Program-made: the position numbers and the translations under genes
NCBI GenBank assembly: GCA_951804945.1
Contig: OX638166.1
Coordinates: 11,532,001-11,596,000 of the forward strand
DNA length: 64,000 nt
Direction: 5' to 3'
DNA from: Podarcis cretensis
Lineage: Eukaryota
Part shown: positions 14,993-55,020 of the stretch, piece after piece
How positions within the stretch are numbered: the stretch's first letter is position 1
Layout: each line of letters opens with the position of its first letter
Notes under the pieces: model-generated
What the model was told of the DNA's origin: nothing
Database searches by the model: none
Seen by the model: the letters and a program-made list of their open reading frames with translations, nothing else

Positions 14993-15296
14993 AAAGGTAA
15001 AAGGTAAAGGACCCCTGGACAGTTAAGTCCAGTCAAAGGACACTATGGGGTTGCGGCGCTCATCTCGCTTTCAGGCTGAGGGAGCCAGAGTTTGTCCACA
15101 GACAGCTTTCTGGGTCATGTGGCCAGCATGACTAAACCGCTTCTGGTACAACAGGACACCGTGACGGAAACCAGAGCACATGGAAACGCTGTTTACCTTC
15201 CCGCCACAGTGGTACCTATTTTTCTACTTGCACTGGTGTGCTTTCCAACTGCTAAGTAGGCAGGAGCTGGGACAGGGCAACAGGAGCTCACCCCGT
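14993..15296 (-). mobile_element. Sauria (Squam1-type) SINE, 5'-truncated
   Basis: (ACCTTT)n-type tail, homologous to the copy at 47439; flanked by tgcaccacgt / tgcaccatgt duplication. Confidence 0.9.
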
Positions 15297-29673: not shown

Positions 29674-29935
29674 TCAAAGAGGAGGTGGAGGAGGCTCATT
29701 TCCTTTATTACTCTCTTTTAAATTTAGATTTTCTAAAGCAACATCTAAAGGCATAATATCTACACAGCCCATAGCACCAAAATCGGCAACCTCCCCACGC
29801 TCGTCCTCATCAGAGGAGGAGCTTTCTTCCCGCATTAAAGTGGACAGCAGAAGCTCTTGAACAAACAGGCTGCGGTCAGCTCGCTCACTCTCCATTGACT
29901 GACGCTCTACTTCAGACATCTTGGGATCGTTCAAC
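29674..29935 (-). CDS. KCMF1: KCMF1 exon 7 (terminal coding): LNDPKMSEVERQSMESERADRSLFVQELLLSTL...KESNKGNEPPPPPL*
   Basis: cttgtgcag acceptor on -, TGA stop 29676-29674, 262 nt; recognisable KCMF1 C-terminus. Confidence 0.97.
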
Positions 29936-30868
29936 CTGCACAAGAAGGGGAGACAAAACAGGATATAGCTGAAAATTCTGAGGCTTGGGAACACTGTACA
30001 CACCAAGTGTCTAATAATCTACAGGATCATGAAAAGACCTGTGGATGTCTTGGGTTCAGAAAAGATGCATCTGATTTATTTCTACACTAGGAAAGAGATG
30101 ATCAGGGACTGCCAGTGATCACTCCTTGCTTATATCCAATACCCTGAGTCCCTAGCGCCAGCACTCTTAACTGCTCCAGTGCTGCTTCTATGGAACCCAT
30201 TCAGTTCTCCTGAAAAATTCTCGGTTCACCGCAGGGTAATACAACTTTAGCAAACCTGCATAGTAACTGGAGAGATTACTGCTCTCATAGTTGAATGTAT
30301 GCTGCACACGCCATTCAACTTTCCCATCTTCTGCTATCAGATAGTTTGCCACCTTGGTACTTTTTGTGTGAAAATGGAACAAAATGGAGGGTTGCTGTGA
30401 CATTCTGCTACAAAGGGAGGACCCCAGGAACCTATTCAGGAGATGAGATTAAAATCTATTTCCCAGGAATCTTCACGCAGGGATTATTCTGACCCAAAGA
30501 TGGTACTGGGTATCTTTTAGAATTTATCTGATCAAAAGTATAAAAGTTGCCGAGATGTAAGCAAAGAAGGAGAAGACCTTTTTAAATGAAGGAATCACAA
30601 CAAACGAGATGTTTAAAACAAGGTTCCTTCTCTATTTTTTTTAAAGAAGGCATTCCCTTAAGATTAAATTGAGGAAGGAAGAATAATCTTACAGAGGAAG
30701 CAAGCAAGGCAAAGTTGAAGGGCCAAACTGAAGGGGCCAAGATACTGAGGCCAATATGAGTTAGTGGGAAAGTGGCTTAAGAATTCTCTTTTCAAATTTG
30801 TGGCTAAGTTTTTCAAAATATGGCAACTGTGTATATCTGTGTAGATTTGAAAGGCCCATGCCGTGGTA

Positions 30869-31162
30869 CAGTGGTGCCTCGCAAGACGAAATTAATTTGT
30901 TCCGCGAGTCTCTTCGTATTGCGGTTTTTTCGTCTTGCGAAGCACGGCTATTAGCGGCTTAGCGGCTTAGCGCTATTAGCGGCTTAGCGGCTTAGAAAAA
31001 GGGGAAAAAAGGAAAAAAACTCGCAAGAACTTGCAAGACGTTTCGTCTTGCGAAGCAAGCCCATAGGGAAATTCGTCTTGCGAAGCACCTCAAAAGACGG
31101 AAAACTCTTTCGTCTAGCGAGTTTTTCGTCTTGCGAGGCATTCGTCTTGCGGGGCACCACTG
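30869..31162. mobile_element. Tc1/mariner-type MITE with internal TTAGCGGC tandem repeats
   Basis: TA|cagtggtgcctcgcaagacgaa...ttcgtcttgcggggcaccactg|TA; CpG-rich, so probably young. Confidence 0.92.
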
Positions 31163-32158
31163 TATTTTACTCCACTGGGGTTACCTAAGACTTCTAATGG
31201 TACAAAAGCAGGCTGTTGGGAGACATTGTGCAGACAGTGGAAGCTGCTAATCACATGTAGTGGGCACACGAGGCACGCAGATGATGATTAGTCTCAGTTC
31301 TACCGGATCTAACTTTCCTTTTAGGCTTTATAAACTATTTCAAAGTTAGCATATAATGTAAATTGTGACAGTAAAAAGTTGGCCATAGCTTGAAACTGAC
31401 AACACACTCAGTCTCCTTCAGTAAAATAATGTCTTTGGAAGATGTCAGAAGAGATGAAAATGATTTTAAAATAACATATGTAAAATATTTTAATCAGTCT
31501 ACAATGGAGGGCCATTATTAATTGGTTCCATTTTGTTCTATATTATGAGTTCTCATAGAGATTTTGTTTAAAGAGAATTAAAGAGGAATTAAAGAGAAAT
31601 ATCTGATGAATCCATTACTATCTCGGTATTTCTACTTTACAACAGATACCATTTTTGTAATGTGTAGATTTGAGAATATATGAAGGATTTAATTTGTAAT
31701 GTATTTTGAATCATAAAAAAATTAAAATATGCCAGCATCTTGGAATTCAGAGTTAAACATAATGAATTGCAGCTACACATAACAGCACTGTATTAAACGG
31801 CCCTCAGATTGCTCAGTAATTTTCTTGATTTTTCCAGGAATGCGAATTGCAAGAAAAACTTGTATTCAACGCCTACTTCTAAATTACAGTTTGAGCCACT
31901 TTAAAACTCTATCCCCTTCTCTGCCCTTTGCCACTTAAGCCAACAATCTCTTTTTAGTAGATACAAGCAGTAACAGAAAAGGCACAAAAGTTTACGTGTG
32001 CTTGGCTGCAGATAATGACTGCTGAAGGAGGTGGCTAAAAAGCAGTTTGTGGGGAGGAGGAAGATGCCATCAAAATACACAAATTTCAAAAGCGGGGCTG
32101 AATTCCTGGAGTGATTCAGAACCAATAATTACAATTCCGACCCTCTAGAACGAGTTAC

Positions 32159-32441
32159 CTTGTAAGGAGGAACTGAGAGTTTTGGATAGCCTGCTGACTG
32201 TTTTCTGTGTTGGATGTGTTGGTTGTTGCTGTGGATTGTGTTATAGTGGTGGTGACGCCGCTAGTGTTGGCGCGCCTTGTCGCGTTACGTGCAGTCTCCA
32301 GTTGTTGCCGTGCCGCCTGTGCATGCTGCCGTTCTAACTGCAGTTGCATCTGCAGTTGCTGCAACTGAGACGCGGAAGGGCCAGAGGAATTGAGCTGTCC
32401 CCCTGCAGAACGCCTCACGCCGGACAACTGAGATAAAAGCT
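32159..32441 (-). CDS. KCMF1: KCMF1 exon 6: ELLSQLSGVRRSAGGQLNSSGPSASQLQQLQMQLQLERQHAQAARQQLETARNA...SQFLLTR
   Basis: ttggcag acceptor, AG|gtaact donor, 283 nt. Confidence 0.97.
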
Positions 32442-32959
32442 CTGCCAATATAAAAAAAGGATTCGGGAAGTAAGAGTGGACTCTAACATAACCACACAGT
32501 CCTCTGCCACTACCACCTCACTCTCCCACAGTATCTATTCCATAAGCTTCCCATTTTGTTACTACAGGGTAAAACGGGTGAAGGTATACTCATAGTCCCT
32601 AAAATGCAGCCCCAATGATCTCCTACCCTGACACATCATTAGTGTTTTAACAACACAGTAGTACATTCAACAAGCCGTGAAGATACTTTGAAGCGGCTGG
32701 AATTATTGCTCAGAGCAGTTCCTTAAAACTCTCTCAGCCAGCTCAAATAGTTCATCATTGCAGCAACTTCTTAAAAATATAAACATCCATGTGGATGTTT
32801 AAAGCTCTGATTCACTGAAGACTATTCTAGAGGGAAGAGAGATAAAATCTAACAACAGATATTCCTGCTTTTGGGGGGGGGGGGGGGCGAGGTGGAAGAA
32901 TTTAAATCATGCAAGTGCACAAAAATACAAAGGGATATGTAAATATTCACAAATCTTAC

Positions 32960-33134
32960 CAGCTATAGGATCCATGGCTTCCCTATTGCTTGGAGAATAT
33001 GAACTCTGCGAAGATGAAAAACCACCAGTGGAACTGCTAGTAAAGTGCATGTTGGATCTACGTGCGCGAGGGCCACCCAAACCCCGGCCTGGGTGAAACA
33101 TTCTACGTACATGCCGAACACCACTGGATTCGTC
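32960..33134 (-). CDS. KCMF1: KCMF1 exon 5: DESSGVRHVRRMFHPGRGLGGPRARRSNMHFTSSSTGGFSSSQSSYSPSNREAMDPIA
   Basis: Preceded by a U12 AC acceptor; G|gtaaga donor; 175 nt. Confidence 0.96.
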
Positions 33135-34826
33135 GTAAGCAATGAGTTAAGGGAAGGAAAGTGTCAACACGCAAACAGGAACGCCTTAGCCACTAAGACA
33201 ATGGACTTGTAAAGAACAGGAGCAAAGCTTCCTTCTTAGTTTAGAGGAGAAATGGCCACAATTCAAGGCTAGCCAGCCCTCCAAGGCCCGTGCACTACAC
33301 TCACCAGGCATCCATACTGTATGCAAACACACCTCCCCGCCCCAGCTCTTGTTAATGGGAACACACCACTCTCGTGGCCAGCGCTGGGCTGAGAGCCCTA
33401 AATCTCTCCTCCCAAGCCTAGGGCTGCAATCATGGCATCTGAAGAGCAGACACAGCAATTTCCCTCCCCATTGCATGACTCGCATGGGAGAAATGGAACA
33501 CCAGACTTGGTGAAAGGGCCCAATTATTCGACACAATTATGGCCACATAAAGCAGATGCACTGAGTATGCAGACTCTGCTTAGTGTGCCGCTGGCATCCC
33601 AAATGTGTTGAATTTGGGGTGCGCTGCTCTGCTAGAGGCATGCTCCAGCTTGCCTGCCCCCAATGCTATAATACAGTGGTTCCCAATTAGCTATGTATCG
33701 TGGATTTCTTGTTATTCAAAAGTCAAGCCATGGACGCTCCCTGCTTTGGAAAATTTTGATTATCTCCAAGGTAGTTTTTGTTATGTGAATGGTGCCACTG
33801 ACCCCCTGGGTGGGTTAGGCAATTCCCAATTGGGAACCACTGCTATTTTGTGTCTTCTCAAGCTTAGCGTGGTGTGAACCAAGCACAACCCCAGTAACTA
33901 GCAAGGTCATAAAAAACAGTTACATTTCTATCTTCAGATCCCCTTATCTAAAAAAATCACACTGGGTGTATTAAAAACAATTTTGCACAATATTAGCATT
34001 ATAGATGCAAAGAGCAGGGCAATGCGCAGCAAATGCCAAATCCAGAGGAAGAACTGTGAGGGGAGAAAGACTTTGTTTGCTATCAGGGGGTGGCTAGTTT
34101 CACCCGCGTTGCCCCAGTTCCAGCCCAAGGAACCTTCAGAAGGGAGTTGCTCCCCTGGGCATTATGGGTATGTGTATTCTAATGAGCTGAATACAGTAAA
34201 AGATTATCAGTCATGGGGAGTGGGGAGTGTGTATTTGTTAAATCATATACTTTTGCATTAATTGTGATGTTTACCTTATTTTTTTAGTTGTTGCTTTGTT
34301 AATAATGTTTTATAGATTGTAATTGTTTCACCGAGGATCTGTAAATTATTCTATATCATCTGTGCTGTATTTGTGATGTTCTGTCATGTTATTGTCATTT
34401 ATTGTTTGTAAGCCGCTTTGGGATATATCTGAATGAAAAGCGGCATAGAACTATAACAAAGCAAATCAAGAAAATACAGTCTCAGAGGCAACATGCCAAC
34501 GGAATTACAAGCTACAGGAATGTATTCTTCTGAACTCTTTCTTGGAGCATTCCCAAAGCTTGAGGAGAGGTTACTTGCTCAGACAGAACGTATTTTCTTT
34601 CAAATCTTTCCTCAAAAGAAAGGAAAATAAATCCTATCAGTTTATACTAGCCAATAGTGGTGCAATTAACATGAAGTGCTCCAAGCAGAGTATAGCTTAT
34701 CTAGCTATTCAAAGAAAACTATGTAACACGCTAACAAAAGCACCTATTTCAGAATCAACATGGGTGGCTTTTAGCATAGAAGGCAAAAATTCTTCAGTTG
34801 CTTCTTCTTGACTTAGGCAAGGATAT
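33135..34826 (-). other. KCMF1: U12-type (minor spliceosome) AT-AC intron, KCMF1 intron 4
   Basis: 5' end |ATATCCTTG, branch site TCCCTTAAC about 12 nt before the terminal AC|; joining gives ...RAPRDL|DESSG... in frame. Confidence 0.95.
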
Positions 34827-34928
34827 TAAATCTCTTGGAGCTCTATGTTCCAGTGTAAGATGAGCTGCAAAGTCATCCGTAACATGATTGGGATCTCCTC
34901 CTGGTAATGCTGCACATATCGGACAAAT
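34827..34928 (-). CDS. KCMF1: KCMF1 exon 4: ICPICAALPGGDPNHVTDDFAAHLTLEHRAPRDL
   Basis: cattacag acceptor; U12 donor; 102 nt; CxxC...HxxxxH zinc finger. Confidence 0.97.
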
Positions 34929-35640
34929 CTGTAATGACAGAAGAAAGAAAGGCCATATGAGCAAGTGTCTTCCAGGCCAAAAAAAAATTGACCAACACAC
35001 TGAACAGAAACTACTCTCTCATGCTGAGAAAATAGCAGCCCTTGTACAACTCACCCTTCAGTTCATAACGATTCTCAAGACCAGCCTTCCAAATAATCAG
35101 GAAGTCAGTGAAAGCCCCCAACCAGATTCATTCACCTGATTGTCACCTGAGCACTGCTCCCCTCCTTGCTGCCAGTACAAACAGGAAGGAGCTGCTATCA
35201 TACAAACAGGTACAGCCCTGTGCCTTTTATGCTCCTGGACAGGGAAGAGCCAAGATGAGCAACTGTCTTTGGTACTTCATAGTTTCTTCCCATACCACGG
35301 CTCTTAAAGCAACTGCTTCTTCTCTGACTCCCCTAGACGTAACACGGAGGACTTTGTGTCTAAAAGAAACCAAAAGAGCAGGCAGCTTCCATGGCACTGC
35401 TATGGAGACAGAGTGTGGGCTGGTATATTCTTCCTTGCTAGAGAGGAAGCAGTTCATCAGCTCCACCTAGTTTATCCTGGCAAACTCCAGATGAGGGGGC
35501 TTGCTTGGACTGATTCTCTAGCCATCTCTCCCCAACAGAACTGCTTTTTGTCCCTAAAACTCTGCTACCAAGAAAGGGAAGGAAAGAAATATAGGGTCAG
35601 TCCAGGCAACTGGGGCACATCCTTCCAAACAGAATTCTGT

Positions 35641-37466
35641 TTTTTATTTTTTAATAAAAATTTTATTAGGTTTTCACATTTTATACACACACACACAACA
35701 AAAACAAAAACAAAACATATATAATTTCATACTCTTACTTTCTTTACCCTCTTTCCTTGACTTCCCCCACCCCCTCTTCATACATCCCAATTCCAATAAT
35801 TAATTCAGCAAGTTCTTATCTCTCATCTTTAACATATTATTATTATTTTTAAAACTTAACTCTTTTTACTTATCCACATTTAACGTATCCAATTCTCTTA
35901 TAAACATTAAATCTTTTTTCTAAGGTCGACCTAATTTCTCTCCCACGAATTTCTCCCTTTATATTTTAATTAATTATATGTCATAATGGCCAAATACAAA
36001 AATCATAAAATTTTAAAATTCTGTTCTCCCCTCCCTCCCTACCCCGGTTTCCATCCCTTATGTCCACAGAAACAGTTCCTAGCCCGGATTCCTCACATCC
36101 GAGGCCTTCAAGTCTCTGTCAGTCTCTCTCCGCCGATTTTGTTGGTAACCCTTTTTGTTGGTCCTCAGGTCTCGAAGGAGTTCAGTCGCGGTCACACCAA
36201 GTTTTCTTCCATCCAAAATACTTAAAAGCAGTTGCTGCAAAAGGTCAGCTGCTCTCCCATACTCAAAGAGGAAGTCCCAATCATATTTCTTTATTCTTTT
36301 AAGTTCCAGTATTCCAGGTACTCCAGGGACTTCCTCCTTCATCTTTCTCATCTTTCGCAGATTTGTAATCCGAAGATCTTCTTCTTTATTTCCTGACAAT
36401 ATAGGCTTCTGATTGGTATTTTCCTTTTCCGCTCCTTCTTTCCTCTCCACCTGTTCCAAAAATGTCTCTTCTGGTTCAGCTGCAGATTTCTTATTAGTCA
36501 AATCCTTTATGCATTCAGCAGAGTTGTTTGTTTTAGAATTCAAGGTCATAAGTTCTTTGTTCATAGCCGTACTCTGCTCTTGCAGGATTCCCACGAGAAA
36601 AAACATTTTTTCTATCTCTGCCAGTAATTTTCCCTCTGCAGCCATTGTAATGTCTCTAGTTCCCCCTAGGGGGATTCCAATTACTTGATAGTCCTTTTCC
36701 AACAGTCCATTACTTATTGTTTATAGCTACGTTGTTTCCAACCACCTCAGTTCAAATGCAACACTTTTAATTCAGAGAGTTATTAAGTAACAAAGTTCTT
36801 AACTTTAACCGCCCGTTTGACAGCTCCTTTGACAGCTGTCAAACTCCTTATTCTTTTTCCTCCGGCTTACGCACAGGACACTCCCGGGTTCGGGGGGGGG
36901 GGGTTTACACAAAAGCTTCCAAAATTCCTCACTTTTTCTCCAGCACAAAGACTTCTTCTGTCAAATTCACTGAAGTATCTTTTATCTGACACCAAAAACA
37001 ATACTCTCCACCTTGGTTCTCCAATCCTTGCTTTAGATCGTTTGTAGGTAGGGGGGGTGCGGACTTCCCTTTAGCACATCCCCCGATTGTACCAAATTCA
37101 AAGGTATAAATTTTAAAGTCCAGATTCCAATCTACTCACGGGTTGTTTATTTTACAGTCCGAATTTTGGGGAAAAAGTCAGCGCTCTCTGGCCATGGCTC
37201 GCGGCTACGCTCCACTGAAGTAGCGGTCTACTCACAGCACCACGCCGCTCCCCGTACCCTCTCCGTAGCCTTTAAAAAGGCTCTTCGTGGGTCAGGGAAG
37301 GCGCTTAAAGGTGCCCGCCGAGTCACCAAGTCCGCAGGCTTCCGCGCCTGCGGTTTCTAAGGGTCCCCGCGTCGCCGGCGTGGTAAGACCCGTCCTCAGC
37401 AGAGCCGATTCCCTCCGGAGCTCGGAGGGAATCCGCCATTAATCCGATCGCGCTAACCCGGAAGTC
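35641..37466 (-). mobile_element. Full-length non-autonomous L1-like (HAL1-type, ORF1-only) retroelement
   Basis: Perfect 16-bp TSD CCAAACAGAATTCTGT (35625-35640 and 37467-37482); 5' end GACTTCCGG...AATGGCGG; single ORF; AATAAA plus A-rich tail; no reverse transcriptase. Confidence 0.8.
36079..36645 (-). CDS. 188-aa ORF of the retroelement, possibly a divergent L1 ORF1p-like coiled-coil protein
   Basis: ATG at 36645 in strong context (ACAATGG), uninterrupted to TAG; heptad-like N-terminus. ORF1 homology is judged by eye only. Confidence 0.5.
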   Translation of the reverse strand: MAAEGKLLAEIEKMFFLVGILQEQSTAMNKELMTLNSKTNNSAECIKDLTNKKSAAEPEETFLEQVERKEGAEKENTNQKPILSGNKEEDLRITNLRKMRKMKEEVPGVPGILELKRIKKYDWDFLFEYGRAADLLQQLLLSILDGRKLGVTATELLRDLRTNKKGYQQNRRRETDRDLKASDVRNPG

Positions 37467-39655
37467 CCAAACAGAATTCTGTATGAGAGAGCTCCATTCT
37501 GGAGGTTTGCACTTGCCCCGCCCTCCCACTCCTCTCTAGAAAGGCAGAGAAACAGAAAGCCTAGTAAGCAGCCTTGAAAGCAGAGGATCTTCATTCTGGA
37601 GGCAGCACACAGAAGCTGTTTCTCCTTTCCAGGAGATGAGGACAAAAGCAGATCACCTACCACTTATACTAGTATTACAGGACAATACTAAACACAGGGC
37701 TGTCTTGTCTGAAAACAATTATTACCCCAGCCAAGAGGTTATTTTCAAGCCAGATAAAAGTACTGAAAGTAGGACTTGTGCAAAAAGCAAACAAAACCAC
37801 GAAGCAGATGCAACATCAAATATATTTCCCAGATGGATAAATGGGTGTTTACCACGAGTGTCCATTTGTTAAAAGATTTAGTTCTGTTTTAAAGGCATCT
37901 GTTCTTTTTTGTGTTTTTAACTGTTTTTAATTATCCTATGTGCAAATTGCCTTGATTCAGTGGTTCAAAAGGCAATACATAAAACAACTGTAATAATAAT
38001 TAGAAACATGGCACACAGCAGCCACTTTACACAGAAAACAAACGATTACAAAGGGAAGATTTAACAGCACTTGTGTTTCAATAAATATGAGAGATTTGAT
38101 TTAGCTCAATCATTTTACTAAAGGGACGGGAAACAACTTCAGACATGTCTCCATACTTTTAAACTTGCTGTGTCTTCTTTTGCCATTCTGTTTTCAATAA
38201 TGAGAAATAAAATGAACACAAAATGCAGACTTATCTGACTATGCAAAAACATGCACTGACACATACGAAGTTTTGCTTCCCAATAATTCTTCCATCCCTT
38301 TATGCAGAGTCTCTTTAAACCCAAGTATTTTTATAAATGACAGATAATCCTGTGTGAATTTATCCAGGAGACCAAAACATACAAGACTTCAAAGCTTTTC
38401 TGTGCCACACCTATTGGTGCATCAAATCTGATGAATACAATTTTAAATAAATCTATATACAAGTTCTGATTTTGTTAGGCAGTGCTCAGGCACCTTTGCC
38501 CCTTCCAGTCTTCTCCTTTGCTGTTACCTGAACTGCCTTTGCTAAGTCACCAGTTTGGAGCACGGGGGGAAAACCTTAAGAGCTGCCTGCAAGCAACCTG
38601 CCACATTTGCAGAGACAGAGAGACTTCTAAGTGAATGAGACAGGATTATGGATCCTCTGATTACTTCTGGAATAAGCCTAACCTCCCTACGGCATTGCAC
38701 AGAAAACTCTCAAGAGCAATGCCTGGGATACCAGGAAGAATGGAGCACTTTGCTAAGCACTATCATCACCATTCAGACTGGTATAGTATTTCACATCTAT
38801 GAAACATTACTGCCACCCTGTGGAATCAATCCTAACTAAGTTACAGGCTGAATTGTAAGATCAGTAGTGCTGCAAGGTTTAATTGGTAGATTAGTCAATG
38901 AAAGCTTGAACTCTGAGTATTAACTGAGCCTTTCAAGAAGGTATACAAACACCTCAACTGCAGAAAGGTGTGCTTGGTTACATATTTGGAACGCCTCGCT
39001 ATAAGGACAATAATGGAACAGATGTTCTTCGTCCAGTATTTCAAGCCAGCATATGGAGGTTTTGATAATGTGCATATTTAGTTACACATAATCAATTAAA
39101 AGGAAAATGATGAATCAGCTGAACATTCTTTAACTGAAAACTAGCAAATTTCAGCACCAAATTTCTTATTTAAACCTGCACTTGGAAGCAAAATTTGTTT
39201 TATTCTCCAACCACTAAACTGTCCACAAGCTGATGGACTCAGAATATGCTGATTCAATGACAACACTATATAGGTATTTTTACCTAGGTAAAAGTGAAAC
39301 TGCACCCTACTAAGCTCAAGCCTGCGATGTTAACAAAAGAACAGGGATCTTACTGTAACCAAAGCATAGAAAATGAGAGAACCAGGTTTCCTCTGATGCC
39401 CCCCCTCCCAAAAGAAATCACAACCCAAATATTTTTGAATATTCTCCCATGCATGTTATCCTCTGAAAGCTAGCATATTGCATAGTTAAAGAGTATGAGC
39501 TACAAGCTAGCAAGTCTCTGGCTCAAATGAGCTTCATGGGCAGCCTCTGGAAATGCATGGATAGTAATACTGGTCTACCTTAAAGGGTAGTTGTAAGGAT
39601 TATTGAGATAAAGTACTTGAAGGTCTCTGAACACCCTAAAGATAGATATTTGGCT

Positions 39656-39905
39656 GAAGAGCCTGCTGTATCAGGCCAGTGGCCCATCTAATCCAGCATC
39701 CTGTTCTCACAGTGGCCGAACTCATGCCGAAATCAGCCAGCAGGATTCAAGCACAAGAGCACTCTCCCCTCCTGTGGTTTCCAGAAGCTGATATTCAAAA
39801 GCTCTGCTGCCTCCAGCTATGGAGGTAGACCATAGCTATCCTGGCTACTAGCCCTCAATAGCCCTCTGCTCCATGAATTTGCTTGATTCTCTTTTAAAGC
39901 ATTTT
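39656..39905 (-). mobile_element. CR1 LINE 3' fragment
   Basis: gaagagcctgctg.atcaggcca.tggcccatcta.tccagcatcctgttctcacagtggcc, the reverse complement of the CR1 3' end seen at about 17560-17645. Confidence 0.8.
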
Positions 39906-40245
39906 GGTCACACTTTTCCTCCAAGTGTAAATAAGAGGCCTTGCATTCAGAATGGAGAAAGGGCAACTGCATTTGCTCAGATATGGCACAAAGCATTCTC
40001 AAGGTAAAGTCTGTATTATTTTCCATGGGAGGATTTTCCATGGGAAGCAGGGCCAGAAGAGAAAACCTGAAAATAAAATTGTCAATGGGGGAAAAAAGAC
40101 ATTGGTAAGTGATCTCCTGCAACTTTTAATATTAAATTAGTATTCATTCATTGTAACTAATTTTCTATTTTAAAAAACCCCCACGATAGGCAAAAATTTC
40201 AAGTTATTGTTGGTGTTATTCAGAAGCAAGGCAGACTGTGCTTAC

Positions 40246-40385
40246 CACTTCTGTTGATGTTTCTGCATGTTCTGAAGTAACGTGTTCTTGAAGAGATGTT
40301 TCCGTATACCCCATTTTTCCACAATAAGGACAAGTAAAAGACTGTGGCTGCTCTACAGAGAAAGCTTCTCCACCATAGTACAAAT
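40246..40385 (-). CDS. KCMF1: KCMF1 exon 3: DLYYGGEAFSVEQPQSFTCPYCGKMGYTETSLQEHVTSEHAETSTEV
   Basis: cccccccag acceptor, GTG|gtaagc donor, 140 nt; C2H2 (Di19-type) finger. Confidence 0.97.
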
Positions 40386-40748
40386 CTGGGGGGGAAATAA
40401 GATATGTGAGAATTCCATTCATAAAAAATGATCATGGTTACAAATATAGGACACACCAAACTTAGCTCAAACATACAGTCTAATGTACAATTCAATTAAG
40501 AAGAGTTGCATCCAACTAATTCACAGTATGTGTGGAACTTCCATGAGTACAACACAACTTTTCCTCTCTTTCTTCCCCCTGCAGCCCCCAAATTTGCTTT
40601 GGGTTTGCCCCCAACTCTCCAGAGCAGATTTTGGGGATGCGGAAGTTCTACTGTGTTTACACAAGTTGTTCTGCACACCCAATCGAACACAATTAATCAT
40701 CTCTCACAATACAGGATTTTCGTTTTGTGTTTTGTTAGCCACATAATC

Positions 40749-40785
<37 letters not shown>
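40749..40785. repeat. (TAT)n microsatellite
   Basis: About 12 perfect units. Confidence 0.98.
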
Positions 40786-40788
<3 letters not shown>

Positions 40789-42190
40789 AATTGAGAAAGA
40801 ATCTACAAGGCTAATGGCATTTCCCTACACAAAGTAATCCTAATAATACTATGCTTAGAAGTGCTAAGTGTGCTAATATTTTCACACCTGAAAACAAACC
40901 AGTGTCAACAACCACTGAGGCATCTTACAGAATAATATACATCATTAGTTCTTTAAACAAGAAAAGCTCAAACACCAGATCCAGTTTTCCTCTGCTGCAT
41001 TTGTAGCTGGTAGGAGTTTATACACCTGGACTCACAAGAAAGTGGTCACAAAGCTAAGCAACCCCAAACAAATATACAAGCAGAAGCACAAACTGCTGCT
41101 CTCCACCACCACAACTGTAGAATGGCAATAAAGCCTTACTTGACATGTGTTTATGCAAGGAAAATGCTATCTCCCCATTGAAAGCAGAAGCATTTTCTTT
41201 GTTCCCACAGAAGTCCCACAATGAAATGAATATACCATGAGTAGCAGCAGCAGCAACAGCAGCAGTGCACTTGGCAGACTGGACTCAGCCAGTAGAGCAG
41301 GAGAACTGATCCCAGGGTTGTTGGTTATTAAAGATTCCTGCATTGCAGGGGGCTGGACTAGATGACCCTGGTGATCCCTTCCGATTCGACGATAATGAGA
41401 GACATAACCTCTACTAGAAATATGTGCTGCCTCCCTGAAAAAACTCCCACCCATTCCCCATGTCTTAACTATGCTGAAGGAATCTGTCAGCACTAACATT
41501 AAACTTGGTTACAACTAACCAACAATTCCCTTAAACCAGAATCTGAAACCAAGATTAACATCCACCAAACTGTTTAACTGCAGTCCAGGGGAAAGGTTTA
41601 CTTCAGGAATGAGACAGGCTGCAGGGACAGAATGCAGGTCCCAGAGGTTGGATTCTGATTTGCTGACCCCTCTTCTCAACAGGGAAGAAATGTTATGACT
41701 GCACAATGCAAACATTAAAGCAACACGGAACGCTTGAGGCTGGATAATCCCACTCTCCCCGCAGTGAAAGTTACTCCAATACAAGAAAGGTTGGGTAAAA
41801 GATCCAAGTACAGCTATTCATACAATACAAAAAATATCCTTGAATGCTGTTGTACATACCAAGCTATGAAAATTCACAAAGGATGCTTATGTGAACTTGA
41901 AGAAGAGCATGAACATCACTCGGGAATACAGACTGCTACCTGGTCCCACAGAAACCAACAGAAATAGGACAGTACTTAAGAAAGCTTGCTCTGCATAGCT
42001 CTACTCTAGCACTTAAGCAGATTTTAATGAGGCCACATAAGTGACATTAATACGGTTTTCAAGTGAGTTCTAATGAATATCCCAGAAAACTATATCCATG
42101 GCAATAAGCTAACAAGCTCCCTACGCCACCTTGTAGTCAACCAATATTTTCTTAAATGAAAATCTACTGAAGAACCATCACTTTTTGTAA

Positions 42191-42434
42191 CAGAGTGGTA
42201 CCTCAGGTTACATAGGCTTCAGGTTACATAGGCTTCAGGTTACAGACTCCGCTAACCCAGAAATAGTACCTCGGGTTAAGAACTTTGCTTCAGGATGAGA
42301 ACAGAAATTGTGCTCTGGCGGCACGGCAGCAGTGGGAGGCCCCATTAGCTAAAGTGGTGCTTCAGGTTAAGAACAGTTTCAGGTTAAGAACGGACCTCCG
42401 GAACGAATTAAGTACTTAACCCGAGGTACCACTG
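42191..42434 (+). mobile_element. Tc1/mariner-type MITE, family A copy 1
   Basis: TIRs gtggtacctc.ggtta / taacccgaggtaccactg|TA; near-identical to the 54728 copy and reverse complement of the 49401 copy. Confidence 0.9.
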
Positions 42435-43027
42435 TACATGTGTTTCTCACTATAAAAGATTTTAATCTCTTTAGGAGCACGAAGAGTTTTTAAGAGTACA
42501 CGTAGCCTCCCAATCAGTTTTGGTCTGCAGAGCAAAGCTTTTGGTACCATTACCGCTGTTTCTGTAAACGATGTTCTGGTTTAGCTATTTGCAACAGTCA
42601 TCCCAGACACTAGCCAGAAACCTCTGGAATCCATGTCCGAATAGGGCAAATCTTAAGTTTCGCACTGCAATCCAGGCATCACAATGTATCTGTAAGACCA
42701 TAGATAAAGCTAGTGGTGGTTTGTGGTTTTGACGGGTGGGGAGTGGTGTTCTCCTGACAGCAGCACGGTGCTTGCCAGCAGAGCTCCAGGCTGAAGCAGT
42801 CAACCCTGCAGGTGAATCCATTTGCTGAGGCACTTAACTGCTGGCTTTGATGGACCTGTTCCATTTTATGCTATTGGTTTTCATTTGATGCTTATTCATA
42901 TTGTTTTATTTTTCTTTCGCAAGCAGCTCTGAGAACCCATATTTAAAAGTGGGATAGAAGTCTTCTATATTCTAGACCCTACTATCATAATAAAGGTTGT
43001 TTCATCAGAGAGAAGGAAATGCAAAGA

Positions 43028-43644
43028 ATCAGTTCTGGGTTGCAGTTATGGGGGAAATTAGCAACATTATTGGTAACGTAGTCCAGCCAGTTCAAACTCG
43101 GTACCTCCTCTCTACATTTTAAAGCAACAACTCTTCAGCAACATTAAAACCATTTGTCCTTTATCTGGTAGCGGAAACCTGCCCTGCTGTGGGCCCAGGG
43201 ATGGAAAGATGGTTTCAAATTTTACAATCAATAACTGGCTCAAAAGGGTTGTACATGCTGCAGTCATGGAAAAAATTGCTCATCAGCGGTGTAAGCTGCA
43301 GGAAAATGCAGAGCCTGAGGATTATGCGGATATTTGTTGTAATTTTATTACATATCTCAGAATCGCCCAAGCTCAATATAGTACCCACAAATTATTTATC
43401 CGAAAGTAGTTTTAGTATTTTCCCCATTTGTTTACCTTACCCATGACTTACCCCAATTTTTCTTTCTTAGTTAGAATCTGTTAACGTTCTTTCATTATTT
43501 TAATCTAAATGTGCATTTATATATATAAAAATGGTGCCATTATTTTCTTTTATATATCCAAGATGTGTACTGTTGTTTTGTTCTTTTCTTTTTAAAAAAA
43601 CACATGCTTACCCACTGAATTAAAAATAAACAATTTTTTAAAAG
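43028..43644 (+). mobile_element. 5'-truncated L1/Tx1-like LINE with long flanking duplication
   Basis: Residual ORF2 C-terminal motifs (FW..V..EI; WK...TI..W......MEK), AATAAA/A-rich end, 33-bp direct repeat on both sides. Confidence 0.7.
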
Positions 43645-45293
43645 GGTTGGTTCATCAAAGAGAAGGAAATGCAAAGAGCCGCCTGTCCCTTTGTGTTTAT
43701 GAATTGTTCCTGCTCCTCACTCCTGAATCTTCTTTTAAAATGAAATGCAAAGCAGAATGATATGCCAATAATAGCGAGAAAGGCCCAGTATACTCAGGTC
43801 TTCCAGTGACACATGTCTGAACAAAATGTAACATGGGAAAAATTATAAGCCACAGTAGACATTAGTCACATTTCACAAAGTGAAACTTGGCCCCCTCATT
43901 TTCTGCAAGAAGTCTGGAGCTCCAGAAGTCCTTTTCTACACTACAGCAAACAAACCAGAAAGCAGAACAGGATATGAGCTGGTCTGTAAACAGCAAGTTA
44001 GTTCCACTCAGGCCTGATTCATAACTCATCTCTCCCCTTGTGCTTCTGATGCACAGCGCTGCAGAAGCAGCACAGTTCTTCTCAACGCACAGTCCGGCAC
44101 AATCACACCCCTCTGCTGGTTGTGCATATAGCTACCATCAGTAATCTATGTCCTGTGCAGACTCTTCTATAATAAAAGGCACCATACCAACGATACACTT
44201 CCCTGTACTGGCACGGGTTGTGGCGATTTACTATGCATACCATCCTATCCATGAAGGGAGGCAATTACAGATATTCCATGACTGGAACCCTGACATGCAA
44301 CCACCACCACACTTCCAGGATGAACCCATTTTCTTGAAATAAACACATCTGAGCCTTTAGATTTTCCCTCGACCCCATCTTATCCTTGCAACAAGCTGTG
44401 AAGTAGCCAATGAGTTTGATGGTGCAGTGGAAACTTGGACCTGGGTCTCCCCAGTTCCCTGCTTGACACCACACAGGCTCTTTCACAGATCCTCTTCTCC
44501 CAAAGATTTCACAGAAAGCCTGGCTGAGAAATGGACAGGCAGAAGGGAGGGAATAAATTGCGGGAAATTTCTGACTGGACTTCCTGCAACTCCACTCGGA
44601 GAATAGGGACAGGACAAGCTAAGGGCTGTATGTTGAACCTGGAATACAGCAGACAAACATAATTCATAAGTGGATGAGGAGGAAACACTGTAATGTGTGA
44701 ATGAAGAAACTGCAGCTCTCCTATTTTTGTCAAACCACCAAACAAGCTTGAGAGGAGGCAGGTAAACCACACTATAAACAAACCTGTACTTGATAGACTT
44801 ACAACCACATACCCTGGAAGCAGTATTCCGCTAAATATAGGCTCTGGTACTTGTCTGGAGAGCTAATATGCCCCCCCCCATTTGAATACCACTTCAAAAC
44901 AAAATATTGGCCTCAAAGAAGTCTTATCTCAGGCTGAAGAACGGAGTTTAAAATGCTTCAGACAAGTAAATTTTGATCATAGGTATTAAAAATAACTTTT
45001 CAACAATGATAAAGTCATAGAACCTCAAGGTAAGAGAGGTCTATAAAATTAGTAAAAGAGAACCTGCTTACATCACTGGAAGGTATTTTATAGCTACACT
45101 CCCATAGCACCATTACAACCCAGGTAGCGGTATGTCCCAAGGAGATACAAGAAATGAGTAAGGTGCACTGAAGCTACAGAGGCTGCCCAAACCTGTAGTA
45201 TGTCTAGCAAGGCAAAATTACATGGTTTAAGCAAGTGATTATGTTATGTATCAAAGTCAAAAGGTGTAGTGCAGTGGCTACAGCAGTTCTTCC

Positions 45294-45331
45294 GAGAGAG
45301 AGAGGGGGGGAGAGAGAGAGAGAGAGAGAGA
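45294..45331. repeat. (AG)n microsatellite interrupted by a G run
   Basis: Direct inspection. Confidence 0.9.
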
Positions 45332-46228
45332 ACAAGAAACAGTTACAAATTAGACATCTAATTCCATTTTGGTGGTCAAAACATACACCAGCTGAGCCAA
45401 CACATGTTTTGACCACCAAAATGGAACAACTTGTTGTTTTTGATGGAATGCTGGCCACTTTTACTCTGCTCTGATTACGCTGTGGGCTTTTCATATATAT
45501 GTTATTGGAATTTAATATTTGAAGTTCTGTACCACTAAAATGAGAATAGCCATATTGCACAGGTTTATATCTTCGGTTTTCTGGGGAAAGGTAGCAATTC
45601 ATTTTTGAAATTTTTTCTCTCGCTCTCACATCTCCCTACACTTTGAATTCTGTATCTACAATTTGCATTCTACTTCCACTTGCCACACTACTACTTCCTC
45701 TTGAAAGGCTAAGGAATTAACTTCACTTGTTTTTCCTTCTAATTCCGGGTTCAACAAAATAGAACAAAACAAAACAAAACACTGATGAACAGCAACAATA
45801 AAAAGTAATTAACCTGTATTTGATTATTCATGTTTATGAAAATTCATGTGCTTTTAAAATAATTGAATATCCCTTCCCATCTTCCTGTTTCTTCTTATAC
45901 ACAAAACCCAATTCTAGGCAAGTTGACTCAGAAGTCTCACCTAGTTCGGTTAGGCTTAACTCCCAAGTAAACATCGATTGGATGGGAGGCTAAAAATCAT
46001 AAAGTGTCAGCAAGGGGCTTAACTTTTTTTAATTCCCTGTGCAGTGCTTGTTTGAATAGTGCTCATATTAAATGCAATCAAAACTAAATGAAGAAAAATA
46101 AAAGCAAAACAAAAGAATGAATACATATGCCATCTGAAAAGAGCAAGGTTAGTTTGGGAAACATCCTAAGTTATATAAAAATGACGATATATGTATTGTG
46201 ACCAAAATAAAAAGCAAGAATAACTTAC

Positions 46229-46396
46229 CAAAATCTACCCTTGTTAGTATGCACTGCATTGGATGGTCAGTTGTATGCCTTGTCGTCGTTGCACCACTTT
46301 CATAACAAGATGCACACAGATCGTAATCGTAGCAAATTAAACACTTGTATCTGCGACCTCGAAAATTTCCTTTTAAACATGCATCGCAGCTGACAC
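46229..46396 (-). CDS. KCMF1: KCMF1 exon 2 (ZZ zinc finger): [56 protein letters not shown]
   Basis: tttgtag acceptor, G|gtaagt donor, 168 nt, phase 1/1. Exons 2-7 total 1130 nt; with the 16-nt coding part of exon 1 expected from the orthologue (outside the window) this gives 381 aa. Confidence 0.98.
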
Positions 46397-47438: not shown

Positions 47439-47792
47439 GGGGACACAGGGGGGGACGCTGTGGGTTAAACCACAGAACCCAGGACTTGCCGATCAGAAGG
47501 TTGGCGGTTCGAATCCTCGTGACGGGGTGAACTGCCATTGCTCAGTCTGTGCTCCTGCCAACCTAGCAGTTCGAAAGCACGTCAAAGTACAAATAGATAA
47601 ATAGGTACCGCTCTGGCGGGAAGGTAGACAGCATTTCCGTGCGCTGCTCTGGTTTGCCAGAAGCAGCTTAGTCATGCTGGCCACATGACCTGGAAGCTGT
47701 ATGCCGGCTCCCTCAGCCAATAAAGCGAAATGAGCGCCGCAACCCCAGAGTCGGTCACGACTGGACCTAATGGTCAGGGGTCCCTTTACCTT
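47439..47792 (+). mobile_element. Sauria (Squam1-type) SINE, near full length
   Basis: tRNA-like head with B box GGTTCGAATCC, tail ccctttacctt, 7-bp TSD CTGATCC. Confidence 0.92.
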
Positions 47793-49400
47793 CTGATCCA
47801 ACCCAACGTATGCATAATCCTAAAGATAACAATTTGCAAAAAAAACAACAACCCACAACTACAAAGTGTAATAACCTTCCCACTTTTTATTTAGAAGTTT
47901 GCATGAATAGGAATCTTATTTATGTATCTGTTAAGAGCCACATAACATTTAACCAACTTTAAAATGTTTCTAGGTATGTTTTAAAATACCTAGTAAAATC
48001 ATGATCTCAAGCTTCTAATTTATAGTAATTGCACAATTGCCTGTCTGTAATTGCCATGCAAAAGTTCAAAGAGAACTGAACGTTCTCTTTCAGTTACAGA
48101 TCTAGAGCAAAGATCGTGAGCAGTACCTCGCTTCAATCCATGCCAATCTCTCAAAACCACAACTATTTTTCAGAAGACCTGGCAGCTGGTTCTGTATTTC
48201 TACAATGACTCTCACACTTAACTGGCAGACACCAGCTCACAGCCTTCACAAGGGCAGTACTGCCACGGATCACTTACTACAAATCAAGGTACTCAAAATA
48301 GTGCTTACAGCAACACTGTAACGTAGACCACACAATTCGGCGGAGAGCAGGGAGCACCGAGGCTGAGAAAATATAGCAACTTGCTATGCAGTGAGCTTGT
48401 ACCAAGAATGCACCATGCATCTTCGTCTTTCAGACTACCTGGATGAACAACAGTAATAAGGACACCCCCCCCCCAACATTGCCAGCCCTAGTAAATTACT
48501 GATAAGTGAAATATGAATGTGCATCAGTGACAATGCAACAGAACTGCTTTCCTAACAAAAATCACACCCACACTTTCAGCCAACAGTCCTCCAACTAAAT
48601 GGCAGGCCTCAATCAACATACAAGGACTCCATTTATCAGCAATAAAACTACCTCTCTTTGGATTTCCAGAACGCTGACCCAATTTCTAACGTCGTTCTAT
48701 GACCATGCGCCCTTGAACTTCAGCCGAGGTATTTTCTGTCTCCCCAATCCCCACAAACACTTTTACTTCCCCAACAGATTTAGATTGCCAATAGAAATAG
48801 GACAGAACCACTGAAAGCTATGCCACTGGAGGGTAGAAGGATAAAGATAAAAATGGCTCATTCTAATTTTAATTGATGGAACAGACTACTTTCCTAAGAT
48901 GTTTTCAGCATTATTCAGGCGCTAACGTTTCCGCGTCCAAATTTAAAAGGCTGTTTCTTTTGGTATCATCTAGAAATGTTAAGGTGAACTTAAAGGGGTT
49001 TGCTTTCTCATCAAAATGTTATAAGCTTTCTTATAATGAAGGCGTAAATAATGTTTGTATCAAACAACAATATACAACATCACAGTATTTCAATTTTGTA
49101 ATTAACTGCTCTGGAGCAGTGTTTACTTAATTGGATTCCTTTACAAGAGCACCCCCCCCAAAAAAAGTTGCAGGGCCAGGCTGGGCTCTGACGGTTGATT
49201 GGGGCAGCCCTGAAGGAGCCTGGCAACCTTGTGCAGTTTCCGGTGCTCCTTTTGATGCTTTCTTTTCAGAATGGTTAATTGCTTCCATTTTTCAAAGGCC
49301 ACAAAAGACACCTGAAATAACCCAAGGGAATCAAAACAGCAGCAAAAGTGTGGAAAAACACCACATTGTGCCTTTTGGATTTTATTGTGCTGATGATATA

Positions 49401-49625
49401 CAGTGGTACCTCTGGTTACGTACTTAATTCATTCCGGAGGTCCGTTCTTAATCTGAAACTGTTCTTAACCTGAAGACCACTTTAGCTAATGGGGCCTCCC
49501 ACTGCCGCCGTGCTGCCGCTGTGCGATTTCTGTTCTCATCCTGAAGCAAAGTTCTTAACCCAAGGTACTATTTCTGGGTTAGCGGAGTCTGTAACCTGAA
49601 GTGTATGTAACCTGAGGTACCACTG
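49401..49625 (-). mobile_element. Tc1/mariner-type MITE, family A copy 2 (inverted)
   Basis: TA|cagtggtacctc...gaggtaccactg|TA; reverse complement of copies 1 and 3. Confidence 0.92.
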
Positions 49626-51108
49626 TACACAATTTATTTTCAGCATTACAACGGGGGTGGGGGTGGCGCCTAGATATTCCATTGTGGCGACTGTAACTCA
49701 GGCTTAAAGTGTCATTTGGCGACTGTATCAGAGTTTCTAACACTGATTTACAATTCATAAAGTGGGAATGGCCCAGTTTACACCACTTACACACCTTTCC
49801 AGTGCAAGTTCAAGAACCTGATCACTTGTTGCAAGGAAGTTCAAGAGACTCCAGTACCCAAACTACACCAGTCCATGAAGGTGCAAATCCTCTTCTGTTT
49901 GAGGGATCAATTTTAAATTGGCAGATTGAGCTAAAGTGTCATTTGTCCAATCGTTCTCGCTTTTTTCGCTGTATTTTCCATAGGCCACTTGAAAATTGCT
50001 GAGGTTCTTTGTGGATCTCGTAATAAACCAGGCTAGACTGCTAAGATGAGTCACTTAACTGGCAGGTGTTTAGGGAGAAATCAGTAATCACCAGCAACAT
50101 ACTATGAAGGTCAAGGGCCCCACGCCAGGGCCTTGTTATCTAATTCAATAATCTGGCACTGGTCAAAACAGCCTCAATCTCCACCATCAGAAAAAAAATT
50201 AATCAAGCACAGGGCCAAGGTCAAATATTCTTGACTCTTCTGCAGCCTTTCTGTGACCACATGAACAAAGATCGTAGACCACAATTTGAGAATTTCTACT
50301 AATTAAACAATGGTAGTCAAATTGTAATAGATGTGGCTGAGAGGGAAGGCTACACTCCTTTATTGGTTGAGACAACTATGGTTGCAATATGCTACTACAG
50401 TAGAGATTGAAAAACTATTTTTAGAAGCAAATGTGATTTTTAATAGTACATGGTAGTTTGGGGTTAATAAATTTGTATGTTAAACTTATTACAGTATCTA
50501 TTAAAATACCTATAAATGATATTTTGGCAATATTAATTTAAGTCAATTAGTTAAAATACATTCATATCAGTGTTCGTAAATGGACACATATGTCTCTCAA
50601 CAAATTTTTAAAAAAGCTCAACCATTTTTTTGAGGTGTCCTGGTTTTTACTTTTTGAAATGTGGCAAGCCTAGTTATAGGGAAATTTATTTCACACTGAC
50701 TCAAAAGCATCACATGACACTGCATTAATTAAGCCATCAGGATATGCAACGGTCCCTCCCCCCTTCAACTTCCAGAAGATGAATAAGCAATAAAGGGAGA
50801 AAAAATACGTTCTTCAGTCCTAATAAGAGAAATGTTTGATTTGGATGTGCCTTTATGTACAGTAATAGACCACATCTTGGAATTCCACATTTGTTCATGG
50901 CAGTTTTCAGAATACAATATAAAAATAAAAAACATCTGCACTTCTCAAAAATAAACCCATGATGACAAGTTCAAGGTACAGGAAATACATCCATGTTCTC
51001 ATCATTGCCAACAGCTATCATTTTGCGGTTTTCAGGACTTTTGAATTCAGATAGTGATTTTTTCCGACTGTGGCCCCCTTCCAACCTTGTTTCCTTCCTG
51101 TGGCCCCC

Positions 51109-53680: not shown

Positions 53681-54727
53681 GTCTGTTTATGTGAGACTTC
53701 ACAGCCTCCTTCACAAGCACCCAATATAATGTCTTGAAATGTTCATTCCTATAATTAATTCAAGAAGGCGTATCACTGAACAATATCCATGGACTGAAAG
53801 GCTTGCTGGTGTGCCAGAAAAACACTACAAAACAGATTTCAGTTGTTCTAACTAGGGATGAGGGGAAGTCCTAGCGCAGAAACAACAGGCTGATTTGTAT
53901 TGAGTAGGGACCTAACACTTTGCTGCCATGAAGAAAAACAGAGAAGTTGCAAGGTAAAAACAGGAAGGGCAAATAAAATAGTTCTGGCAAAAAACAAACA
54001 CACAGATATGAGTAGCAGAGGAGAAATACAAACAAGCTATGATTCTGAACAGGCTCCAATGAATATAATGTGGTGGAAATAGTTCAATTTTCTCACAATT
54101 CTGACACATTTTATATGCTGAAGTCATATATGCAGCAATTTCCCAAGCATGTTTATTCAGAAGTTAAGTCCAACTAATTTCAGTTGGGCTTCCTGTCTAT
54201 AGCTGTGCAACCTCACTCATTAAAACTACTTTCCAATGCTGAAGACAAGGAAACAATATAATCAAGAGCAATTATCAGCTTTATCCTCAGATAAATACCT
54301 TAGGAGCGACCATCTCTTACTGGTTTCTGACCCAATTTCTTATAGTTCAGCTGGTACAAAAGCAAAAAGAGCTTTCCTGTTGGGCATTTTAACATGCAGG
54401 CTGCAGTACTATGAACACTTATTAGGGAGCAACAATGGGGCTCATTCCAAATATGCACAGGACTTCACTGGGCATGTAATTTACTAGGTGAACTAGACTA
54501 TATTTTTTAAAAAATCAATGAAGATATAGGACTTCACCTTAAAATCCTTACCTATGAATAAGACTGAACAAAAATATTTCTCCCATGGAAGTCTGCTTGA
54601 TTTGCCCATGATCATGGTATCATGCACCAAGGTTTTATGTCCATTTGAACTATGACGACATTCAATTTAAGGGAACTGTATTTCTAAAAAGGCTTCTAAA
54701 TGGCAACCTAGTCTTCCATTCAAAGTA

Positions 54728-54942
54728 CAGTGGTACCTCGGGTTACATATGCTTCAGGTTACAGACTCCGCTAACTCAGAAATATTACCTCAGGTTAAGA
54801 ACTTTACTTCAGGATGAGAACAGAAATCGCGCGGCAGCAGCATGAGGCCCCATTAGCTAAAGTGGTGCTTCAGGTTAAGAACAGTTTCAGGTTAAGAAAG
54901 GACCTTCAGAACGAATTACGTTCTTAACCCGAGGTACCACTG
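54728..54942 (+). mobile_element. Tc1/mariner-type MITE, family A copy 3
   Basis: TA|cagtggtacctcgggtta...taacccgaggtaccactg|TA. Confidence 0.92.
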
Positions 54943-55020
54943 TAGACACAAAAAGTACAACAGGGAAAACTGGGCAACACTGTAGCATTAGTTACCCCAA
55001 CTGATGAAAACACTAACTAT

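Follow-up and report, generated by a model that had tools for sequence, protein, structure and literature searches.

We describe a short retroposed element in a window of 64,000 nt from Podarcis cretensis (OX638166.1, positions 11,532,001-11,596,000). The window is the whole stretch that we analysed, and coordinates of the element count from its start. The element is 1,826 bp long and lies on the minus strand (37466 to 35641) between two exact 16-bp direct repeats. It has L1-type ends and carries a single open reading frame (ORF) of 188 aa. Our favoured reading, held with moderate confidence, is that it is a member of a HAL1-like (half-L1-like) family of lizard retroposons copied by the ORF2p of an autonomous L1, and that its ORF comes from L1 ORF1, of which, by prediction, only a coiled coil and a short conserved tail remain. 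We consider it very likely that the family is L1-dependent and non-autonomous, and position and architecture make it probable that the ORF descends from ORF1.

Structure of the insertion

The features of the insertion, from its 5' to its 3' side, are as follows.

37467..37482, no strand: 5'-side copy of the target-site duplication (TSD), 16 bp, exact direct repeat
37434..37466, minus: L1-type 5' terminus, GACTTCCGG, 18-nt spacer, ATGGCG (compared with the lizard clade-1 consensus of PMC5381506)
37407..37433, minus: perfect 11-bp hairpin with an AGCTC loop, directly 3' of ATGGCG (sequence and fold)
37167..37466, minus: CpG island over the first 300 nt of the element, 63% GC, 31 CpG, observed/expected 1.06
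36646..37466, minus: leader, 821 nt, four upstream ATGs, likely an internal RNA polymerase II promoter and 5' untranslated region (UTR), by analogy with L1 anatomy (PMC5381506)
36079..36645, minus: sole ORF, 188 aa, 567 nt, start context ACAATGG, with a family of full-length relatives
35641..36078, minus: 3' region, 438 nt, G-rich and T/GT-rich tracts, no ORF2 domain detected (sequence and Pfam)
35662..35667, minus: AATAAA poly(A) signal (sequence)
35641..35652, minus: A tail, 12 nt including one T, downstream of AATAAA
35625..35640, no strand: 3'-side TSD copy, 16 bp, exact direct repeat

The hallmarks of retroposition, a TSD, a poly(A) signal and an A tail, are all present. The window holds ten pairs of exact 16-mers spaced 100-8000 bp apart, one of which is the TSD; the other nine lie around 30.9-31.1, 42.4/49.6 and 43.0-43.7 kb. 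Purines make up 60% of the sense strand of the element versus 49% in the flanks, and the observed/expected CpG ratio of the first 300 nt compares with 0.15 and 0.28 in the two 3-kb flanks. Sequence evidence supports an insertion made by target-primed reverse transcription with L1-like ends. Its CpGs have not decayed, its TSD is perfect and its frame is open, all of which suggests a young insertion.

GACTTCCGG starts at base 1 of the element and ATGGCG at base 28. As described in PMC5381506, lizard clade-1 L1s (Anolis L1_AC1-AC15) have the 5' consensus GACTTCCGGTGN8ATGGCG and 5' UTRs of 792-1465 nt, a range that includes our leader. They share with the element the GACTTCCGG...ATGGCG terminus and a long CpG-island 5' UTR, and at the other end AATAAA, an A tail and T-rich 3' repeats. 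The spacer between the two 5' motifs is 18 nt in the element versus 10 nt in clade-1 L1s. By eye, seven of nine Anolis clade-1 5' ends taken from the supplement of PMC5381506 carry, behind ATGGCG, a stem-loop whose loop contains GCTC and whose stem sequences differ, and the element has this same layout of ATGGCG and GCTC-loop hairpin. The first 267 nt of the element fold with z = -4.3, and none of 200 shuffles was equally stable. There are donor-like GTGAGT sites in the leader at 37235 and 37139 on the minus strand, so leader splicing is possible; by eye, donor-like words also occur at about 240-380 nt in several Anolis L1 leaders.

Shuffling the element 2000 times gave an ORF of at least 188 codons twice, and shuffling the ORF region 2000 times never did, so that the ORF is longer than expected by chance. 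Its other two frames contain stops and have no family match. When we read the three sense frames of the element through their stops, we found no Pfam family in any of them, and therefore detected no endonuclease or reverse transcriptase. Lacking a detectable ORF2 with these two activities, this copy does not qualify as an autonomous L1. A search of Rfam gave nothing above chance.

Much of this anatomy had been proposed in the original prediction from the letters of the DNA, and that account has held up: the perfect 16-bp TSD (35625-35640 and 37467-37482), AATAAA at 35667-35662 followed by an A tail, an L1-like 5' terminus, a leader of about 820 nt with a CpG-rich first part, and one uninterrupted 188-aa ORF in a strong Kozak context. 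The absence of endonuclease and reverse transcriptase was also borne out, with only 438 nt between stop codon and TSD.

The protein family and its possible relation to L1 ORF1p

The ORF belongs, as judged from sequence comparison, to an old, diversified lizard retroposon family with open frames. In a first protein search, all nine matches spanned 100% of the query at 44-62% identity, with lengths of 176-214 aa. A profile search among 1.84 billion representatives brought up 11 matches. Nine of these are full-length members, and a tenth is a partial member that ends differently. The eleventh, P0026 (1336 aa), is a fibronectin-III repeat protein, and we discarded it as spurious. With a profile weighted towards the N-terminus we obtained 14 matches, two Podarcis lilfordi clusters among them. 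The two profile searches supplied the more distant of the full-length members. For family statistics we used the window protein and 17 of the 43 retrieved proteins, with one full-length representative per cluster; this set aside the spurious match, 17 near-duplicates and 8 sequences that are partial, redundant or end differently. The 17 relatives are 171-215 aa long and 30-66% identical, with both ends in frame despite many indels. Each has 2-9 indel blocks relative to the window copy, and every one ends in ASD(V/L)xxPG. Pairwise identity across the set is 20-94%.

The element is a single copy in the 64-kb window, which would fit an isolated internal deletion in an ordinary L1 that left a frame open by chance. 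We give this explanation almost no weight, as at least 17 diverged full-length relatives match it in size and at their ends, and a remnant of an ordinary ORF1 or ORF2 was not detected in any sense frame. The original prediction had named a single-copy deletion among the findings that would speak against it, and the family evidence largely refutes this. A dispersed, multi-copy lizard family with a maintained open frame is supported by these relatives and by nine accessions from P. lilfordi.

The nine P. lilfordi accessions, which make up the two clusters and include the loci CAI5764958, CAI5772847 and CAI5788794, lie on six contigs of differing chromosome-scale length. They comprise eight distinct sequences that are 94-100% identical where in frame; one of them reads 85-87%, solely as the alignment passes a frameshift. 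Intact copies occur beside truncated or frameshifted ones, which is what a recent spread of the element would produce. The sequences fit a young subfamily dispersed over several chromosomes. The P. lilfordi copies (P0029-P0036) are entered as hypothetical host proteins in NCBI and UniRef. According to the methods given for that annotation, repeats were masked with Repbase and RepeatModeler libraries, and these ORFs were still called genes. The unmasked ORFs hint that the family is poorly catalogued, but no more than that. Such entries may inflate counts of lineage-specific genes.

These annotations also bring up a different explanation, that the element arose from a host gene by processing of its transcript, perhaps from a domesticated gene like L1TD1, and that its relatives are orthologues and retrocopies. 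TSDs and A tails occur on retrocopies too. In addition, GACTTCCGG and ATGGCG, as ETS/YY1 motifs, are also common at gene starts in CpG islands. However, nine near-identical accessions spread over six chromosomes of one species, many deep lineages at 20-68% identity, and the L1-like hairpin layout with its strand asymmetry are hard to square with a host gene, and we believe this explanation to be very improbable.

Exact 31-mers of the element occur at shares of 0.28-0.68 in sequencing runs of 7 coded organisms from 6 studies, where the same locus and other copies are indistinguishable and the run with the highest share may come from the source sample itself; we disregarded shares of 0.20 or less. 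There was no RNA among the runs listed, and no family loci were found in metagenome or viral contigs.

Two parts of the protein are conserved across the family.

36490..36636, minus: heptad repeat and predicted coiled-coil helix, codons 4-52 (permutation test and AlphaFold helix 2-52)
36082..36120, minus: most conserved block, codons 176-188, with the ASDVRNPG end (75% mean pairwise identity), overlapping a predicted RNA hairpin

The coiled coil is well supported by sequence. Over residues 4-52 the contrast of hydrophobic a/d positions across the family is 0.51, a value that none of 10000 permutations reached, and AlphaFold predicts a helix at 2-52 with a pLDDT of 76-91 over residues 1-40. The C-terminal helices have no heptad pattern (4978 of 10000 permutations). 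Conservation is 60% for residues 1-25, falls to a minimum of 27% at 76-100 and at 126-150, and rises to 75% for 176-188; variability is greatest, and indels are frequent, past the coiled coil.

The original prediction had foreseen the coiled coil. It was less fortunate with a segment resembling RRNNLRI.G.PE, which is not conserved: in most relatives W stands in place of the R of the window copy, and few parts of the protein are less conserved. Its basic tail is mildly basic, but no more than that (10 K/R and 6 D/E in the last 35 aa).

A small RNA hairpin is predicted at 36081-36106 on the minus strand, over the last codons and the stop, which is the most conserved part of the family. The fold of this region has z = -1.4 and 15 of 200 shuffles were as stable, so it is not significant.

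The hairpin matters for one further explanation. The family could be L1-dependent while its ORF was captured or newly arisen and does not come from ORF1, or the ORF could matter mainly by putting the RNA on ribosomes near nascent ORF2p, the conserved end being an RNA hairpin. The undetected homology to ORF1p agrees with this, as do a protein middle that drifts freely (27-39% mean identity) and the overlap of the most conserved codons with the hairpin. On the other hand, hydrophobic a/d positions are kept in 18 sequences and residues 1-25 are conserved, which points to selection at the protein level; the ORF occupies the place of ORF1 behind an L1-type leader; and the hairpin region is no more stable than shuffles. 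We think this explanation is unlikely.

A number of results weigh against our own reading, in which the ORF is a reduced ORF1. Neither Transposase_22 nor any other L1 ORF1p domain in Pfam matched the window protein or 16 relatives. Searching the PDB sequences with two family profiles did not bring up L1 ORF1p at E<=10. We found no full-length ORF1p in searches at 36-377 aa and 376-2000 aa, which were word-based and give weak evidence of absence, or among the 1.84 billion representatives. Since no match to ORF1p was found, the argument for descent from ORF1 is one of position and a coiled coil. Both AlphaFold models have a mean pLDDT of 53, no strand, and a pLDDT below 60 past residue 40. The window protein is almost neutral and 13 of the 17 relatives have a net acidic charge, which makes the family poorly suited as an RNA chaperone. 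The lack of ORF2 is known for this copy alone, the relatives having been compared as proteins. Seven partial or differently ending members were also found, and the searches favour intact ORFs, so that the family shows a long-kept coding capacity and is not a measure of selection. Finally, the target site on the sense strand, T/ACAGAA, is a loose fit to the preference of the L1 endonuclease, which is TT/AAAA.

A likeness to L1 ORF1p domains was not detected with Pfam or with the two PDB-sequence profiles. Prediction of residues 1-60 as a trimer scored 0.10, which does not speak either way. Foldseek gave no match at E<=0.001, and the ESM Atlas gave unnamed matches only, all below 0.9. VIA-align returned generic long-helix matches (best Z 6.1, root-mean-square deviation 4.2 over 74 residues), and L1 ORF1p was not among them, which excludes nothing. 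The RNA-recognition motif (RRM) and the C-terminal domain (CTD) of ORF1p are not detectable by sequence, and a much degraded remnant is possible.

The fact that relatives were compared as proteins leaves room for another explanation, in which an autonomous lizard L1 lineage normally has an ORF1 this short, and an internal deletion removed ORF2 from just the window copy or a minority of copies. The Logan contigs of the relatives, 910-1865 nt long, cannot reveal what follows the ORF. In the survey of PMC5381506 the shortest ORF1, from one Anolis family, is just 762 nt, which agrees with this explanation, but the 567-nt ORF of the element is shorter than any in that survey. As reported there, all L1 ORF1s examined keep a coiled-coil domain, RRM and CTD, with the last two very conserved, whereas in the family described here this part of the protein varies most and has many indels. 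We judge an autonomous lineage to be improbable, slightly more so than an ORF of other descent.

Known ORF1-only elements and a possible mechanism

Returning to the HAL1-like reading, we compared the element with systems already described. Lizard clade-1 L1s are 6.1-6.7 kb long with an ORF1 of 1026-1101 nt and an ORF2, against 1.83 kb and a 567-nt ORF for the element. Mammalian HAL1, as far as the sources describe it, resembles the element in its L1-type 5' end, single ORF, lack of ORF2, poly(A) tail and TSD. It is ORF1-only, has long maintained its coding capacity, and is supplied with ORF2p in trans. The HAL1b ORF1p is drawn with a coiled coil, RRM and CTD in PMC7586669, whereas proteins of the lizard family are 171-215 aa long, have neither RRM nor CTD detectable, and are often net acidic. 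Strict membership in HAL1 is not established, because the RRM and CTD that HAL1b keeps are undetected and the homology to ORF1p is one that we infer. In the literature covered HAL1 is known from mammals, and the element is from a lizard. We found no reptile or lizard half-L1 in that literature; Repbase and Dfam were outside this search.

ORF1-only long interspersed nuclear elements (LINEs) include HAL1, HeT-A and Ag-Sponge, according to PMC5786205. HeT-A is derived from Jockey and Ag-Sponge from CR1, and their proteins have been proposed there to multimerise with the protein of an autonomous partner. They are from other LINE clades and hosts, and we liken them to the element by life style alone. 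L1TD1 and Bex/Tceal, which are domesticated derivatives of L1 or HAL1 ORF1, also bear coiled coils; these are fixed host genes, whereas the lizard family is dispersed and multi-copy with the hallmarks of retroposition. A dominant-negative action of L1TD1 on L1 ORF1p trimers has been proposed in the literature covered. Further background was drawn from parts of PMC5753468, PMC3627910, PMC13756887, PMC4161310 and PMC10214862. The element was first put forward as a candidate for a novel system; given that ORF1-only retroposons are already known, we consider it a variant of these. Two things set it apart: its protein is reduced, and its L1 context is that of a non-mammalian vertebrate.

The life cycle we propose has five steps. 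The CpG-island leader would likely act as an internal RNA polymerase II promoter, as L1 anatomy suggests. The RNA would be polyadenylated at AATAAA, the signal and tail being present in the sequence. The ORF is likely translated and under selection, since both of its ends stay in frame down to 20-30% identity at the protein level. Through its coiled coil the protein would then co-assemble with the ORF1p of the helper and so carry the RNA that encodes it into the L1 particle, in the way suggested for other ORF1-only LINEs. Lastly, the ORF2p of the helper would likely insert the RNA at a nick by target-primed reverse transcription; the product, the 16-bp TSD, is observed. Co-assembly with helper ORF1p is a tentative part of this scheme, to which we give somewhat less than even chances.

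It is also conceivable, though we consider it doubtful, that the family is an old, still-active lizard L1 parasite without ORF2 and without the RNA-binding half of ORF1, keeping a coiled-coil adaptor with which it enters or poisons ORF1p assemblies of the helper. If so, it would be the first half-L1 among vertebrates outside mammals and a natural test of a lone ORF1p coiled coil. The reason that HAL1-type elements keep ORF1 is so far inferred and not demonstrated. A coiled coil and tail kept over many lineages, together with young copies, would allow the part that ORF1p plays in assembly to be told apart from its work as an RNA chaperone, and the family offers many natural variants for a trans-mobilisation assay. 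More broadly, the family would extend half-L1s to reptiles.

Genomic setting

The element lies in sense orientation inside an intron of a gene with ZZ and zf-Di19 exons (window 29677-46388, minus strand), which is presumably KCMF1-like. The next exon of this gene is about 700 bp downstream of the element. The element brings several AATAAA signals, so premature polyadenylation of the host transcript is possible. A convergent gene, which we take to be HOOK-like, has a coiled-coil exon at 1335-1748 on the plus strand.

Assembly gaps (396 N in total, at about 29.2-29.7 kb and near 10.8 and 40.7 kb) leave the element untouched. The window also contains two other repeats. An older one of 300 bp is present in two inverted copies that are 74% identical (15001-15296 and 47522-47792). 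A 220-bp repeat, unrelated to the element, is present in three copies that are 87-92% identical (42219-42439, 49396-49628 and 54725-54944).

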